Assembly: GCA_965652295.1 (NCBI GenBank)
Contig: CBFGTS010000004.1
Location: forward strand, 192,001 to 256,000
Direction of reading: 5' to 3'
Origin: an uncultured Haloferula sp.
Lineage (GTDB): Bacteria; Verrucomicrobiota; Verrucomicrobiia; Verrucomicrobiales; Akkermansiaceae
Length of the DNA: 64,000 bases
Both the position numbers and the translations under genes were made by a program. The notes under the pieces were generated by a model that saw only the letters and a program-made list of their open reading frames with translations, was not told the origin of the DNA and made no database searches. Position 1 is the stretch's first letter; the number at the start of each line of letters is the position of its first letter. Below, in pieces: positions 12,013 through 28,014 of this stretch.

Positions 12013-12549
12013 ATGAACGCCCGCGAAAGAAACCTCCTGATCGTGCTCGGGCTCACCCTTTTCGGGGTGCTCAACTTCGTCGGCTACAACGCGCTCACAA
12101 CCTGGAAAGCCAGGGTCGCCAAGGAGGCCGAGCAGCACCGGCAGACGCTCGAGATCGCCCGCTTCGCCCGCGAGCAGGCGGATGCGGTGCAGGGTGAAAT
12201 CGACTGGCTGGAGAAAAACAAGCCCGAGCCCAAGGAGGCCGAGCTGGTGCCTTCGGAACTCCAGACCTTCGTCACCGGCCGCGCCAATTCCACCGGCCTG
12301 ACCGTCGCCAAGCAGGACATCCTCGATAACATGACCGAGGGCACCTATTTCGAGCGGGCCCGTTTCCGGATCAACGTCACCGGTCGCGAGGACGCCCTCT
12401 ATCGCTGGTTGGTCGAACTCCAGAGCCCCAAGGATTTCCGCGCCGTCACCGCGCTGCGCCTCAGCCCGAACCGCGAGGACGACACCAAGATCGACGCCGT
12501 CGTCCAGGTCGAGCAGTGGTTCCAACCCAAAGCTTCCGAGGAACTATGA
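12013..12549 (+). CDS. T2SS GspM/PilO-like protein
   Basis: MNARERNLLIVLG N-terminus typical of GspM; TM plus coiled coil plus ferredoxin-like tail. Confidence 0.7.
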   Translation: MNARERNLLIVLGLTLFGVLNFVGYNALTTWKARVAKEAEQHRQTLEIARFAREQADAVQGEIDWLEKNKPEPKEAELVPSELQTFVTGRANSTGLTVAKQDILDNMTEGTYFERARFRINVTGREDALYRWLVELQSPKDFRAVTALRLSPNREDDTKIDAVVQVEQWFQPKASEEL

Positions 12550-13046
12550 AGGCCGTCCTTTTCCTCCTTTCCGCCCTCGCGCTGCCCCTCCTGGCGGCAC
12601 CACCGAAGGAGCCGCAGCGTGAGCGGTATACACGATTGTGGAAGGAATCTCCGTTCACGGAGAAGGCGCTGCCCGCACCTGCACCGACGGCCGTGGATCC
12701 TTTCAAAGGCTATTCGCTGGGAGGAGTGTCCAAACTCAAGGACGGTTACTTCGTCGTTGTTCTGAACGAACAAGACCCCGGGAAAAAAATACTGATCGGA
12801 CCGGGCGTTTCATCCGGGTTCGACGTTCTGAGCGTGAACTGGTCGGACACCCACTGGCAGGACACGACCGTCAGGGTGAAGCAGGGAACGAAAACCGGCA
12901 CCTTGTCGTTCGACCCGGTCCAACTGCGGATCGCTGGGTCAACGGTGGGAGCGCTGCCATCGAACAACAGCGGGGCGCTCCAGAACTCGAATCGCGATCA
13001 GGACAGGCAACGCCGACCTCGTCCGCGGGTCTCCACACCACGATGA
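12546..13046 (+). CDS. Exported protein, PilP/GspC-like (paralog 1)
   Basis: Signal peptide; YTRLWKESPFT, DPFKGYSLGGVSKLKDGYFVVV; highly similar to the next gene; position before secretin. Confidence 0.65.
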   Translation: MKAVLFLLSALALPLLAAPPKEPQRERYTRLWKESPFTEKALPAPAPTAVDPFKGYSLGGVSKLKDGYFVVVLNEQDPGKKILIGPGVSSGFDVLSVNWSDTHWQDTTVRVKQGTKTGTLSFDPVQLRIAGSTVGALPSNNSGALQNSNRDQDRQRRPRPRVSTPR

Positions 13047-13579
13047 AATTCTTCCTTTTCCTGAATCTCGCCCTCGCGCTGCCGCTCCTCGCCGCACCGC
13101 CGAAGGAGCCGCAGCTTACCCGCTACACGCGGCTGTGGACGGACTCTCCGTTCACCGCCAAGCCGCCTCCGCCAACCGCGCCGGAGGCAATTAATCCTTT
13201 CGAGGGTTACTCGCTCGGTGGCGTCACCAAGCTCAAGGACGGCTACTTCGTGGTCGTGCTCAACGACAAGGACCCGGAGAAAAAGGTCCTGATCCGGCCG
13301 GGCTACAAGTCGGAGTTCGAGGTGGTGGACGTCAGCTGGTCCGATACCAATTGGAAGGACACCACCGTGCGCGTGAAGCAGGGATCCAGGACCGGGACCC
13401 TCGCGTTCGATGACGCCCAGCTGAACCTCAAGGCTCCGGTGGCCGCCACTCCGGCGAGCAACGTCAATCCCGCCGCGCAGAACAACAACGCGCAGCAGCA
13501 GAACAACAACAACCGCGGCAACAACGGCCAGCGCCGTCCGCGCCCGCGGGTCGTGGTGCCCCCGAGACCGAACCGGTAA
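13043..13579 (+). CDS. Exported protein, PilP/GspC-like (paralog 2)
   Basis: Start ATG 13043 (ATGA overlap): MKFFLFLNLALALPLLAAPPKEPQLTRYTRLWTDSPFT...NPFEGYSLGGVTKLKDGYFVVV; N/Q-rich tail. Confidence 0.7.
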   Translation: MKFFLFLNLALALPLLAAPPKEPQLTRYTRLWTDSPFTAKPPPPTAPEAINPFEGYSLGGVTKLKDGYFVVVLNDKDPEKKVLIRPGYKSEFEVVDVSWSDTNWKDTTVRVKQGSRTGTLAFDDAQLNLKAPVAATPASNVNPAAQNNNAQQQNNNNRGNNGQRRPRPRVVVPPRPNR

Positions 13580-23571: not shown

Positions 23572-23581
23572 GGTTCCGAAA

Positions 23582-23612
23582 GGAGCGCCGATTGTGAAAT
23601 CGGCATCGCCTC
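23582..23612 (+). repeat. 31-nt REP-like palindrome (family A)
   Basis: GGAGCGCCGATTGTGAAATCGGCATCGCCTC; 29/31 identical to the reverse complement of 27471-27501. Confidence 0.85.
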
Positions 23613-23737
23613 TCCCCACAGCATGTTCCATTGTCGATAGGCAGCTTTGGAGTCGGCGTTTCCGTTTGCAGGATTCCGGGATTCCGGCAGCGCCTCGTCC
23701 GGTCGTGTCAAGGCACAGCGGGCCGGACAGCCGTTCA

Positions 23738-24208
23738 CTAAGCTCCACGACCCGGTCGAGAGCGCGGGTGGTTGGAATCGCCCCAGAAACGGGTCAGAAT
23801 CGCCAAAAGAATCAGTGAGACCGAGCCGAGGAGGGAGAGGCCAAGAATCCAAGTTCCATAAATCCCGCTGCATTCCTGAAAAACGGTATGACTGAAATCA
23901 TGACCCCGGCCTCCAACGGCACGGACAGTGTAAATCGGCCCGAGTAACACTGTGAGCCATAGCCACCAGATCAGACGCTTCCGAAGAAACAGCAGCATGA
24001 TGAAGATGGATGAAAGGAGGAGCGTGTAAACCGGACCAACAACCTGTTCTCCCAGAAGTTGAGAATGAACGCTCGCTGAATATGGCTGCTGGAACTCAAC
24101 GAAGAAATTCTGTGCGCCAATAGTGGGCAGCACGATGCTCGCGGTCGCCGATGCGACGACGAGCAATCCGAGGCAAATCTTTAGAAAGCGATGCGGTTGT
24201 GAATGCAT
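23738..24208 (-). CDS. Hypothetical multi-TM membrane protein (cassette-like gene)
   Basis: About four hydrophobic segments, atypical low-GC codons; probable start ATG 24208, 12 nt after a GTTCGTC core-like site. Confidence 0.55.
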   Translation of the reverse strand: MHSQPHRFLKICLGLLVVASATASIVLPTIGAQNFFVEFQQPYSASVHSQLLGEQVVGPVYTLLLSSIFIMLLFLRKRLIWWLWLTVLLGPIYTVRAVGGRGHDFSHTVFQECSGIYGTWILGLSLLGSVSLILLAILTRFWGDSNHPRSRPGRGA

Positions 24209-24219
24209 TGGGATGTAAT

Positions 24220-24320
24220 GACGAACCTCATAGCACATCAATCGCCTGAGGGAAGTCGAACATTGGCTGGTGATCGAGGGCGCTCATCATGGTGAGCATT
24301 GAACTCGGATCGGGTGGTGA
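24220..24320 (-). mobile_element. Degenerate attC-like site (right half)
   Basis: Gene strand reads ...GGCGATTGATGTGCTATGAG-GTTCGTC then ATG 12 nt later; resembles an attC right arm with a GTT core; left arm not recognisable. Confidence 0.4.
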
Positions 24321-24373
24321 CGTCCTCCCGGAAAATGACCCGAGGGGAAGCTTACAGTGGGTTGCTGGGAATG

Positions 24374-24409
24374 GGAGCGGCGGAACGTGTCCGCCGGGAA
24401 TGGTTTCTG
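24374..24409 (+). repeat. Single REP arm (family B)
   Basis: GGAGCGGCGGAACGTGTCCGCCGGGAATGGTTTCTG, near identical to the left arms at 27570 and 27747. Confidence 0.85.
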
Positions 24410-24477
24410 AGAGCGATCTCCTCGCTGTCCTAGCCATCCGGAACCAGCGGGGCGGAGGACGAAATGATCAAAATCTA

Positions 24478-24534
24478 GGACCCCGATCAGGGTGGTAGGG
24501 GGCCGGTCAGCGAACTACTCCCCGGGACCCGATT
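24478..24534 (+). mobile_element. Probable group IIC intron 3'-end remnant (degenerate DV plus DVI), antisense to HEPN gene
   Basis: GGTGGT-AGGGGGCCGG...CCCCGGG-A-CCCGAT: DVI-like stem with unpaired A 7 nt from an AT terminus; lies just 3' of the HEPN stop. Confidence 0.6.
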
Positions 24535-24545
24535 TGCCTCCTGCT

Positions 24546-25025
24546 TTATTGGATTGGTTCGGGAATGCAAATATTCGCGACTTCGAGGACGACTTGCTTC
24601 ACTGCGTCGTAATAGTCCTTTACGCGAATGTAGGTAATTCCGGTATTGCGTCCGTGGGCGATACCATTTCTCAGGTTGACCACACTATCTACTGCGGTCT
24701 TGAACTCATCTTGAAGAAAGTCCTCTGCAGCAGTTCGCCATTGGGGATCGAACGAGCCGAGCAACTGAAGCAGCTTCTCTGCATTAGCGTTGGTAAAGTT
24801 CGAGGTCTTCGAATCGACGAATCGTTGAAGGGTCGGTGCCCCACTGCGGCGGGAGTGTTCGAGAAGAAGCTCGGCGATCGCCGTCTCAAGAAAACCTGAA
24901 ACCAGGACACAAAGATACCGAGCGAAATCGGAGCGAATCTCAGCATCAGCGGGAAGAGCATCAACCCTCGCGAAAACTGCATCGAGTCGTTGTTGCTCGC
25001 GGGTCACGGCAGCGCGTCCAGTCAT
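24546..25025 (-). CDS. HEPN-domain protein (RiboL-PSP-HEPN / MAE_28990-like), putative RNase
   Basis: All-helical 159 aa; YLCVLVSGFLE and RNGIAH (Rx4H) HEPN motif; starts 2 nt after the DUF262 stop. Confidence 0.85.
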   Translation of the reverse strand: MTGRAAVTREQQRLDAVFARVDALPADAEIRSDFARYLCVLVSGFLETAIAELLLEHSRRSGAPTLQRFVDSKTSNFTNANAEKLLQLLGSFDPQWRTAAEDFLQDEFKTAVDSVVNLRNGIAHGRNTGITYIRVKDYYDAVKQVVLEVANICIPEPIQ

Positions 25026-25027
25026 AC

Positions 25028-26113
25028 TCAGGGTTTAAATTTAGCCGTCGCAATCTCAATTCTCCGCCTCACCTTCGGCTCTTGGGAGGTTCCGGTGGTG
25101 ATCGCTGATCTGTAATCGTCATCTGCGAGTAATTCAGCATGGCGTGCCCGAAGATCGATGGCATCTAGATCGTGGCCCTCAAGCAAATTGCTCGCGATGC
25201 CGACCATGATTGAATCCACGGCGGCAGCATTGACTGCTCTAGTTGGGCGGAAAGCGTCCTCCCCGATTCCAGTCCTGATCAGCCGAGCCGTGTCCTCAAA
25301 GACTGCTGTAATGTCTGCGTCCGATTGACGTCCAAGAGCGCGATTGGTTGCCATGTAGCGATTCAAAAAATCCTTCATCGGTGCGGCGTAGCTTGTGTGG
25401 AAATAGTAGAGAGCGAAGAACCTAAGTATTAGTTCAACATCCTTAAGTCGCTTGGATCGTGGGCCTACGAGATTCCTCCAGTTCTCGTTCTCGTTAAGTT
25501 GACGAAGCAGTCGGGCAAAGTCCCCATGGTAAAGAGCCATTCGAATCTCCTGGGGCTGCAAACTGATGCCGCCCGTATTTAAGCGTTCGAAGATTATGTA
25601 GATGCTGCTCTGGTCCTCGTCCGGCTGATCCTGCCTCGTAACTGTTGCGTGAACAATGCTGTCATCTAGCCGTCGTCGATCCTCAGTGTCGAGATCCTGA
25701 TAACGACGCCCCTCAAACCGTTCTTGGACGCCAGTCAGTTGATACTCTCGCCCGGCTATCACGCCGTCGTAGAAGGAACGAAGGGTGAATAGACGCTGGT
25801 GACCGTCTAGTACAAGAAATCGACCATCTGCTTCCTTGACCAAGAAAATCCCTGGCACAGGAAGTCCGAGCAGCAACGACTCAATAAATCGATCTGCCTT
25901 CGATCGTGTCCATACATATTCCCGCTGGAAGGGGTCAACTTCGTCGGCCAAATCGTCTTCGTGCTCAAAGGTCGGCACCAGAACGTCTCCATTGCGGACC
26001 TTTCTTACCAGCGACTCAACTGGATAGTCTGCTCCGTAAGATGTGATCGAATAGGTGAAGGGAATCACTTCTCGAGCTTCATCGAGCTCATCGTGGATAT
26101 CGTCTTCTGACAT
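25028..26113 (-). CDS. DUF262 (GmrSD N-terminal, ParB/Srx-like) protein
   Basis: FQREYVW, IESLLLGLPVP, VLDGHQRL (DGQQR-type), IFERLNTGG..L..QEIR; no HNH domain evident; low-GC codons. Confidence 0.9.
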   Translation of the reverse strand: MSEDDIHDELDEAREVIPFTYSITSYGADYPVESLVRKVRNGDVLVPTFEHEDDLADEVDPFQREYVWTRSKADRFIESLLLGLPVPGIFLVKEADGRFLVLDGHQRLFTLRSFYDGVIAGREYQLTGVQERFEGRRYQDLDTEDRRRLDDSIVHATVTRQDQPDEDQSSIYIIFERLNTGGISLQPQEIRMALYHGDFARLLRQLNENENWRNLVGPRSKRLKDVELILRFFALYYFHTSYAAPMKDFLNRYMATNRALGRQSDADITAVFEDTARLIRTGIGEDAFRPTRAVNAAAVDSIMVGIASNLLEGHDLDAIDLRARHAELLADDDYRSAITTGTSQEPKVRRRIEIATAKFKP

Positions 26114-26134
26114 GGTGTAGTGATTTTGTTTTCT

Positions 26135-26224
26135 GGTAAATGTCTAGCTTATCCACAGCGGCGAGGAAAGCCTAAATTCAAACTGATGCGCGTTGCCCGC
26201 CGTTGGATGGAGCGGCTTGATGGG
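26135..26224 (-). mobile_element. Degenerate attC-like hairpin
   Basis: Arms GCTTATCCACAGCGGCG (26147-26163) and CGCCGTTGGATGGAGC (26198-26213) pair with single-base bulges; R-box AAC/GTT cores appear mutated (ATCAAG, GACATT); ends about 22 nt before the DUF262 ATG. Confidence 0.55.
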
Positions 26225-26264
26225 GGGGTGGACGTTGAGGATTCGCACCCCTGCCTGCGGCATT

Positions 26265-26286
26265 AACTACTCCTCGGGACCCGATT
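26265..26286 (+). mobile_element. Second group IIC intron 3'-end-like remnant, antisense to PEP-CTERM gene
   Basis: AACTACTCCTCGGGACCCGATT, 21/22 identical to 24513-24534, immediately 3' of the stop codon. Confidence 0.6.
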
Positions 26287-26291
26287 CGACT

Positions 26292-26888
26292 TCATTGGTT
26301 TCGATGTCGCATTGCCAAGCTGCCTAGTGCACCCAGAAAAAGAATGGCGACGACAGTGGGCTCTGGAACACGAGCGGCTTCAATGGCATCAGCGCCTTCT
26401 GCGACGGTGATTCTTCTTCCATCACTGTTTCCGCGGATATTGGATGCGGTAGTTCCAGTATTGGTCGTGGCAATTGCGACTAGCCAGCCAGAGCCGTCGG
26501 GTTCGAAGTGGAACTGAGCAATAGATTCAAAGGGCTGAAAGAATCCTTCGCCGAACTTCAGATAAGAATAATTCTGGCTGCCGACCATCGCGTCGCCCAT
26601 GAATCCCAAGGGATTATGGTAGAGTACATTGCCGGTGCGACCCGAAGGAATGAGAGTTGCATCTGATCGATAAAAGAATGGATCTCCGAATCCTCCCGCA
26701 ACCGAAAGGTTCACGCCTCCTCCGGTTGCGATATATAATCCTCCAGATCCTGGTCCGACGGACAATGGAGTGGGGTTCGGATTAGTATCGTTTGGAGAGT
26801 CAACGCCGAAGAAATAAACTGTGATTGCTGCAGATGCTGAGAGGCTCGATCCAAGCAGCCCAATCAAGGTTGGTATTGCGGGTTTCAT
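26292..26888 (-). CDS. PEP-CTERM sorting domain surface protein
   Basis: Signal peptide (..SASAAI); C-terminal VPEP plus hydrophobic helix plus RHR; low GC. Confidence 0.88.
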   Translation of the reverse strand: MKPAIPTLIGLLGSSLSASAAITVYFFGVDSPNDTNPNPTPLSVGPGSGGLYIATGGGVNLSVAGGFGDPFFYRSDATLIPSGRTGNVLYHNPLGFMGDAMVGSQNYSYLKFGEGFFQPFESIAQFHFEPDGSGWLVAIATTNTGTTASNIRGNSDGRRITVAEGADAIEAARVPEPTVVAILFLGALGSLAMRHRNQ

Positions 26889-27245
26889 TTTGGCCGGACA
26901 GTTTTATTAGTAGGGTCAAGCATGCTTATATCCAGCGATCCTTTTCGGGGAGGGTGGCTGGGAACTCTCGATTTCACAAGGATTTTTCCGGCTTGGATGC
27001 GTATATCGGCTGACGTGGGGATGTGTTTCGGGGGGCGGAAGCTGGGGGCGATATAGGGATCTTCCGCCGGTGGTGGGTCGTGGGTGCCGCGGAGTCGGGC
27101 ACTGACTATCGTCGCAGGGGATCAAGTCGGGGAGCGAGCGTGCCGGAATGCGAATGAGGTGAAGCCACGGATAGAGGGGTTCACGCAGAATCTTTGAGGG
27201 CCGAGGCCCCATGCAGGCTCCCGAGTCCAAAGTTGCCTTTTCTAT

Positions 27246-27290
27246 CACCGAGAAACGGAGATCTACGGAGATAACGGAGATAACGGAGAA
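27246..27290. repeat. 9/10-nt periodic micro-array
   Basis: ACGGAGATCT-ACGGAGATA-ACGGAGATA-ACGGAGAA. Confidence 0.8.
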
Positions 27291-27418
27291 GGCAGGATGA
27301 GAGGTTTCCGGGCCCGGTGGCTTCTGTCATTTTCAGCGCCTCGATCTCCGGAAGGATGCCTCTGCAACCGCGAGCGACCTCGAAGCCTTCTGACGAAAAC
27401 GGGGGGGCGATCCTTGGT

Positions 27419-28014
27419 GGGGTGGAGAGGTGAGGGGCTGTTTATCCTTGAGGAAGAAATCCCGTGGGGTGAGGCGGTGCCGATTTCATAATCGGCGCTC
27501 CGTGGCTCCGTTAGCCTTTGGTCCGCGATCCATGATCTATCATCTGCGATCGATCATCCACGAGAATGAGGAGCGGCAGAACGTGTCCGCAGGAATGGTC
27601 CCTGTCGGCGGTCTTTTCCGGTGACTTCCGGCGAACGCGTTTCGCCGCTCCGTTCCAGTGGCCGAGCGCGCCCGTTATTCGTGCGCGATAGTCTCACGCG
27701 GTCTCGACTCTTCCACGATCTCGTCACCGCCGAGAGGTGGGAAAGAGGAGCGGCGGAACGTGTCCGCCGGGAGTGGTTCCTGTCGGCGGTCTTTTCCGGT
27801 GACTCCTGGCGAACGCGTTTCGCCGCTCCGTTTGTCGATTCCCGGCCTGCGGGGGAAGGCGGTGCCGGTTTGAAAACCGGCGCTCCATTTTGCAGACGCG
27901 GCGGGGTGCGGGGCTGTTTATCCAAGGGGGAAGGTGTCGCGGGGTTGGGGCGATGCCGAATTCATATTCGGCGCTCCCTTGGCCCTCGGCCCACCATCCA
28001 CCATCTACCATCTC
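27419..28014. repeat. Mosaic REP cluster (3x family A, 2x family B doublets, heptamer arrays)
   Basis: Family A at 27471-27501, 27856-27886 and 27947-27977; family B inverted doublets at 27570-27651 and 27747-27829; heptamer runs at 27526-27560 and 27994-28014; GGGGCTGTTTATCC occurs twice. Confidence 0.88.

Follow-up and report, generated by a model that had tools for sequence, protein, structure and literature searches.

The 64-kb window analysed here, one stretch of a contig from an uncultured Haloferula sp. (4.37-Mb genome in 35 contigs), holds a short island of four minus-strand genes that is very probably what is left of a small, now dead chromosomal integron array, one whose gene cassettes have become fixed and whose attC recombination sites bear, antisense to the genes, the 3′ ends of group IIC introns as scars. 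A first-pass annotation, made by a model from the letters alone, had proposed such antisense intron scars in an integrase-less array, and the proposal has held up: intact members of the same intron family sit inside the attC sites of relatives. The island comprises four open reading frames (26292-26888, 25028-26113, 24546-25025 and 23738-24241, the last with a likely start at 24208) and has a G+C content of 0.49-0.55 versus 0.61-0.68 in most flanking bins. Its neighbours are a ppaC-like gene with DHH and CBS domains on one side and a nagZ-like gene of glycoside hydrolase family 3 on the other. When 40 relatives were searched at the DNA level, these flanking genes are matched widely, the closest relative having both in another order, and the four island genes occur together at this locus in none of the matches listed (21 weak matches are not listed).

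Two intron ends behind the cassette genes

The 22-nt element that the annotation had noticed after the stops of two unrelated genes stands at 24513-24534, 12 nt past the stop of a HEPN gene, and at 26265-26286, 6 nt past the stop of a PEP-CTERM gene, with one difference between the copies. At up to three mismatches the window holds two matches, against 0 expected from 100 shuffles, and at up to four mismatches the whole genome holds two matches only, both antisense and just after the stops of accessory genes. This element is the 3′ end of introns from a Verrucomicrobiota family of group II, class C, that targets attC. Its true extents differ between the copies: scar 1, at 24488-24533 on the plus strand, comprises the last 46 nt of the intron, with the 3′ arm of domain V and a domain VI whose left arm is mutated, and scar 2, at 26263-26285 on the plus strand, comprises the last 23 nt, the loop and the 3′ arm of domain VI. 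The final T of each 22-mer belongs to the exon, not to the intron. With an intron-end profile scar 1 ranks first in the genome (E 8e-6 genome-wide) and scar 2 second (E 0.027 genome-wide); they match the loci L020 at 80% and L046 at 96%, respectively (L-numbers denote individual loci, and C2-C35 contigs of the source genome).

A collection scan, which used an exact 18-nt core and one genome per species, returned 87 loci. In 79 of them the match is to the 3′ terminus of a single intron family, the remaining 8 being chance matches; 72 of the 73 real matches with a record title are labelled Verrucomicrobiota. Full-length introns of 1844-2060 nt with a reverse transcriptase (RT) account for eight of the matches, and five more keep both ends. 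Another 23 are cut by the end of a contig or locus, and 43 stop inside the locus after 31-665 nt, with varied truncation junctions and, in nine cases, further intron pieces beyond. TTGT precedes all 13 copies that have a 5′ end, and our attC covariance model finds a site there in 10 of the 13. The intact 3′ end folds as domains V and VI, with a CGC triad, a bulged A 7 nt from the end and a terminal AY; a CGC triad and a short domain V are marks of class C introns. Domain I of the intact members matches RF02001 in 4 of 4, and the RT of L020, the only one scanned, scores 371.6 bits with TIGR04416 (cut-off 300). In a tree of 15 RTs the seven from this family form one clade (100/100), and the fork that it shares with three class 1 integron RTs and four others stays open in this set, which has no named references. 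The plasmid RTs with the highest bit scores are 47-48% identical, and the two examined both sit in class 1 integrons.

Both scars are antisense to the cassette genes, both stop exactly at the last base of the intron, and each abuts half an R″ box, the kind of split junction that the annotation had read. The 5 nt beyond each scar fit the R″ halves of relatives at bases 2-5, base 1 being fixed by the search pattern. At 26286-26290, on the minus strand, they are the left 5 nt of the R″ box of cassette 1 and form the 3′ exon of the intron insertion, with the same exon in L072 and a fit to the exon logo; at 24534-24538, also on the minus strand, they are the left 5 nt of the box of cassette 2 and match the three T at the start of this cassette (26140-26138). 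The catalytic triad is absent from both scars, and their folds (z-scores of +0.2 to +0.8, against -4.9 for the intact intron end) are no better than those of shuffled sequences. With 23 and 46 nt, no triad and no fold, the window copies are not functional group II introns and presumably do nothing as RNA. The Rfam model Intron_gpII (RF00029), one of the checks that the annotation had suggested, scores neither scar; this is uninformative because, at its cut-off, the model also misses the 3′ end in 4 of 4 intact members of the family.

No RT or 5′ end of the scar family is present in the source assembly, where RT matches lie only on other contigs. A complete group II intron fills the 1864-nt contig C35 (L007), perhaps a collapsed repeat, and was rejected as the origin of the scars, being of another family with no DNA match to them, an RT 40% identical and different ends. 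A second RT, in a 739-aa open frame with a weak intron-end match, lies at C3:190459-192061 (L008, L010).

Across 301 genomes of the host family, 5′ ends of the scar family (66 matches in 35 genomes) are as common as 3′ ends (65 in 34), although some one-mismatch matches in the 3′ count may be chance and the two patterns may differ in conservation; given these equal counts, 3′-transduction or preferential survival of 3′ ends was rejected. Five loci (L022, L035, L064, L072 and L075) have in common a short junction sequence immediately ahead of the 3′ end, which suggests that internal deletions recur and produce derivatives without an RT. Two pairs of genomes (L014/L026 and L019/L096) have an intron tail of 84 or 93 nt with the same fusion base and upstream sequence and different downstream genes, perhaps the mark of an element integrating into the intron 3′ region; in L026 this upstream sequence lies in a phage-like region and is where an ATPase-like gene ends.

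attC sites, an attI-like head and integrase pieces

For the recombination sites we built an attC covariance model from 23 intact sites of relatives, with covariation above that of 500 of 500 shuffles and of all slid controls. It finds 12 sites genome-wide, 11 at 40-70 bits and the weakest, at 27.5 bits, in the window at 26135-26225 (minus strand), where the annotation had pointed out an attC-like hairpin. This is a decayed attC of the 89-nt type, with both core triplets changed relative to intact copies and a DNA fold no better than shuffles (two intact sites have z-scores of -2.7 and -3.8). The hairpin is probably a separate decayed attC with its own R″ and not the site split by the intron, because at its left end there is no sign of an intron 5′ junction, the sequence there reading as a whole R″ that carries a substitution. 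The 37-nt spacer beside it (26226-26262, minus strand) may be the right arm of the split attC, a weak match of 73% over 30 nt to the right arms of two attC sites (E 0.84) that the covariance model misses.

The GTTCGTC core likewise noticed by the annotation is present at 24220-24226, and belongs to the right half of a long-type attC (24220-24290, minus strand, R′ at 24226-24220) that is 70-78% identical to four attC-like sites from relatives and the source genome (E 6e-7 to 8e-5); dispersed repeats lie between it and scar 1. For an attC behind cassette 3 (23690-23745) there is no support from the covariance model, homology or fold. The island tally is one whole decayed site by the covariance model, one half site by homology and one doubtful arm. 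Another covariance-model match in the window, at 12765-12831 (14.8 bits), falls within a coding gene, and we put it down to chance. None of the other 11 attC sites of the genome has an intron tail. Arrays with intact sites lie at C4:294600-296650, C9:192380-194100, C2:372354-372442, C7:177837-177944 and C14:58948-59073, the first of which begins at another attI-like junction, with a core able to pair with the first R″.

Upstream of cassette 1, at 26893-26935 on the minus strand, stands an attI-like site made up of GATAT, 19 nt, AATAAA and CTG|TY, with the crossover between 26899 and 26898 and a decayed core that reads GTC for GTT; by its position and homology we take it as attI, in a copy with a changed core. 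It belongs to a leader at 26888-27391 (minus strand) that is common to other contigs, with an attI leader of about 265 nt (also on C18, C11 and C7, and in part on C14) and, beyond it on the 5′ side, a dispersed repeat; over the 500 nt that precede cassette 1, identity to other contigs is 80-88%, with 88% for C18 and 80% for C11 and C7. The genome has five attI-like sites (C4:218917, C18:1523, C11:87635, C7:182767 and C14:55755), none with an intact intI, and four of them have the ~265-nt leader in common, with a similar left boundary and different first cassettes. The bases that follow the crossover pair perfectly with the first R″ at the five sites checked (C11, C14, C18, L168 and L172).

The leader DNA is found by BLAST in 0 of 34 congeners, and it was an attI profile and a strict attI pattern that did find them. 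Of 29 intI loci in congeners, 8 match the profile, with intI divergent and the match on its 5′ side; the pattern occurs 29 times, in 13 of 35 genomes of the genus, against 0 in a reversed control. Upstream of these 29 sites there is divergent intI sequence at 15, co-directional pieces at one and neither at 13, one of the latter with only 128 nt to examine; among congener motif sites, 10 of 25 have no intI in the 1.1-1.5 kb upstream. Downstream, the covariance model finds attC in 24 of the 25 pattern sites that have more than 400 nt on that side. Judged by these motif matches, integrase-less attI heads are common in this genus.

The integron integrase of the source genome survives only in pieces, a split C-terminal part at C18:2085-3001 and about 57 N-terminal codons at C14:55262-55477, and an intI match over the cut-off is present in 20 of 35 genus genomes. 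The C18 piece is interrupted by an element of ~200 nt that has inverted ends, and it faces the attI array, where congeners have a divergent layout; the idea drawn from it, of an intI co-directional with its array, was dropped, since intI is divergent in congeners and on C14. The leader in the window was tested for an intI remnant and none was detected. The integrase matches on the same contig, about 90 kb outside the window, are to another tyrosine recombinase, and the statement of the annotation that the window has neither an integrase nor an RT is correct.

The wealth of solo heads could also be read more boldly: the attI platform may spread in the genus without an integrase and be loaded in trans by one integrase, with attC-homing introns acting as a ratchet that fixes captured cassettes, the defence pair of this island among them, since insertion into R″ followed by deletion destroys the site. 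We regard this extension as unlikely; if true, it would add a route to the origin of integrase-less arrays. The literature searched, in which most subscription journals are not covered, gave nothing on multiple attI copies.

Proposed decay of the array and rival explanations

We propose the following history for the locus and hold it to be very probable. Three cassettes would have been captured at attI, in the order cassette 1 (the PEP-CTERM gene), cassette 2 (the DUF262 and HEPN genes) and cassette 3. A class C intron would have entered two attC sites, each time antisense and in the bottom strand, at a point between the T's of R″. Each copy would then have lost its 5′ 1.8 kb and the left part of its attC in separate deletions (or would have been shortened by incomplete reverse transcription), leaving 23 and 46 nt. 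With the integrase lost, the remaining att cores would have drifted by mutation, and the three cassettes, no longer excisable, would have become fixed chromosomal genes, including a probable anti-phage pair. Capture and intron entry rest on homology; the deletions are what we infer. The same lesion, with another breakpoint, is found in a congener, which has a solo attI, cassettes and an attC to whose middle an intron tail is fused.

Several observations weigh against this history. Scar 2 is weak when taken alone, given its E of 0.027, and the covariance model finds a single site in the island. The 5′ exon junction is gone at both scars, so that attC insertion, which holds for the intron family, is only half demonstrated in the window. 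The last 21 nt of scar 1 are unchanged, yet 6 of the preceding 25 differ, which could mean selection; this sign is confounded because the conserved part is the part by which the repeat was noticed. The RT tree leaves the link of the family to class 1 integron introns open, and a collapsed intron copy could be missing from an assembly in 35 contigs.

The rival closest to the proposed history holds that the scars were born short at insertion, by abortive reverse transcription and with no later deletion, an origin suggested in PMC7923331 for other 5′-truncated copies. It differs from our history in timing alone, and scar 2 begins in the loop of domain VI and scar 1 in domain V, and the relatives include copies of 41 and 43 nt as well as a cluster of 84-93 nt; however, an intact 5′ exon adjoins neither scar, part of the attC has gone as well, and 9 of the 43 shortened relatives are interrupted by insertions, not truncated. 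We hold it to be unlikely, though by no means negligible. The scars could also be intermediates of intron-mediated cassette formation, in which a gene and an attC are joined via two intron copies (a model that PMC7923331 and PMC3001079 describe and credit to Leon and Roy 2009). That the gene of cassette 1 is a lineage-typical PEP-CTERM gene, with a homologue in one congener (72% at the DNA level) near which no attC was found, and that the intron end lies only 6 nt past its stop would suit this model. Yet both 3′ exons resemble R″ halves, each matching the start of its own cassette at 3 of 4 variable positions, as expected for finished cassettes that were hit later; in intact sites these four positions pair in 15-19 of 23, and the test is therefore only moderately strong. 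On balance cassette formation appears improbable here.

The annotation had offered as an alternative that a non-autonomous hybrid of intron end and attC serves as a cassette delimiter or recombination site, and this fared worse. Its best arguments are the last 21-23 nt, nearly unchanged in both window copies, and the pairs L014/L026 and L019/L096, whose common truncation point and flank with different downstream genes point to chimeras that were propagated or formed repeatedly. But the genome has two copies only, of differing length and neighbours and with no common breakpoint, and no flank in the window is held in common with the flank of a relative. The hairpin is lost, 5′ ends are as common as 3′ ends in the 301 genomes, with no excess of the latter, and the 11 other attC sites of the genome have no tail, all of which makes a delimiter role very improbable. 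Least probable, to the point of being barely credible, is that the likeness arose by chance or that the 22-mer is a short repeat of another kind, for example a repetitive extragenic palindromic (REP) element. Chance matches to the 18-nt core do occur (8 of 87 in the collection), and the island is rich in REP-like repeats, but both copies end at the last base of the intron, lie antisense 6-12 nt past stops and between attC and attI homologues, and none is expected by shuffling.

Cassette genes, surroundings and known systems

The gene of cassette 1 (26292-26888, minus strand) encodes a 198-aa PEP-CTERM protein (TIGR02595, 20.1 bits, cut-off 16). Cassette 2 holds gene A (25028-26113, minus strand), for a 361-aa DUF262/GmrSD-N protein (PF03235), and gene B (24546-25025, minus strand), for a 159-aa RiboL-PSP HEPN protein (PF18735) in which the R-x4-H motif is present. 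Gene A matches the profiles PD-T4-2_A (E 2.5e-53) and NsnA (E 1.5e-63), of which NsnA scores higher; we take NsnA to be a component of the Menshen system. Gene B matches no PADLOC profile at E 0.01; it was not found in 200 genomes of the host family and has 444 homologues elsewhere, and a metagenome scan for it confirmed no locus. Together the DUF262 and HEPN genes are probably an anti-phage pair of PD-T4-2-like type, and defence cassettes in integrons are already known (bioRxiv 10.1101/2024.07.02.601686).

Cassette 3 carries gene 4 (23738-24208, minus strand, within the frame 23738-24241), encoding a 156-aa hydrophobic protein of no known family, with homologues in 11 of 200 genomes of the host family, two of which adjoin attC sites; a protein atlas gives unnamed clusters only. 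Among sequence runs of other studies, two cover gene 4 without cover over cassettes 1 and 2, an absence in contigs that proves nothing. Behind the attI of C7, at C7:179288-182082, lie two larger genes of 456 and 476 aa, the translations of which presumably resemble an Argonaute-type defence pair.

Between the half attC and scar 1, at 24276-24487, is a mosaic of dispersed repeats that includes half of a REP-like palindrome (24367-24419) and motifs also seen at contig ends. Clusters of REP-like palindromes, of at least two families and with many copies genome-wide, lie on both sides of the island (27461-27990 and 23579-23624). An Rfam scan of the window gave nothing at gathering score, the low-score matches to microRNA models being REP-like hairpins only, and a sigma-70 scan found no promoter on the gene strand. 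Elsewhere in the window (12546-13579), a secretion-system-like operon contains a tandem pair of small paralogous genes, the N-termini of which are near-identical.

Taken as a whole, this is an ordinary decayed integron array in a little-studied lineage. It gives an example of a cassette array dying and leaving its genes fixed, adds to the attC-homing introns of class C a family widespread in Verrucomicrobiota, with an end in about 1 in 9 of the 301 genomes of the host family, and yields a usable attI motif for this lineage. IIC-attC introns, their 5′-truncated copies in integrase-less arrays and a Verrucomicrobia RT near one of them were already known (PMC7923331), this RT being described there as the best match (80%) of an IIC-attC fragment. 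That paper was the only one found, in the literature searched, to join group II introns, attC and Verrucomicrobia. Intron fragments in general are also known, and loss of the 3′ end is described for RmInt1 (PMC4181065).

Group IIC-attC introns of the S.ma.I2 type insert at TTGT/T in the attC bottom strand, opposite to the cassette genes (PMC7923331, PMC3001079). The family described here resembles them in its antisense orientation to cassettes, its TTGT/T target, its class C type 3′ end and the RT/maturase of intact members, and differs in being a Verrucomicrobiota family whose grouping with class 1 introns the tree does not settle and of which the window keeps 23 and 46 nt. Closest in kind are UHB.F1, H.ha.F1 and H.ha.F2 (PMC7923331), likewise 3′ intron ends in arrays without a neighbouring integrase; these keep domains V-VI and part of the RT, whereas the window copies have neither an RT nor the catalytic triad. 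The DUF262 and HEPN pair can be set beside PD-T4-2 (DUF262 with a PF18735 HEPN protein, table in PMC10952713), with which it shares the adjacent DUF262 and PF18735 genes and the PD-T4-2_A profile match; unlike PD-T4-2, its HEPN gene matches no PADLOC profile, and gene A scores higher with NsnA.

The array as a whole can be compared with attC-site clusters that have no integron-integrase (CALIN; Cury et al. 2016, PMC4889954), as the annotation had suggested: it has cassettes and attC sites and no integron integrase nearby, and that paper discusses, as one origin of CALINs, the case in which a genome with several integrons loses the intI of one. A CALIN has at least two attC sites; the count here is one whole decayed site, one half site and one doubtful arm. 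The array is nevertheless not an anonymous cluster, with one whole attC that scores and an attI-like head of a kind apart from the class 1-3 sites, the only attI that IntegronFinder models, and this head makes it a beheaded integron.

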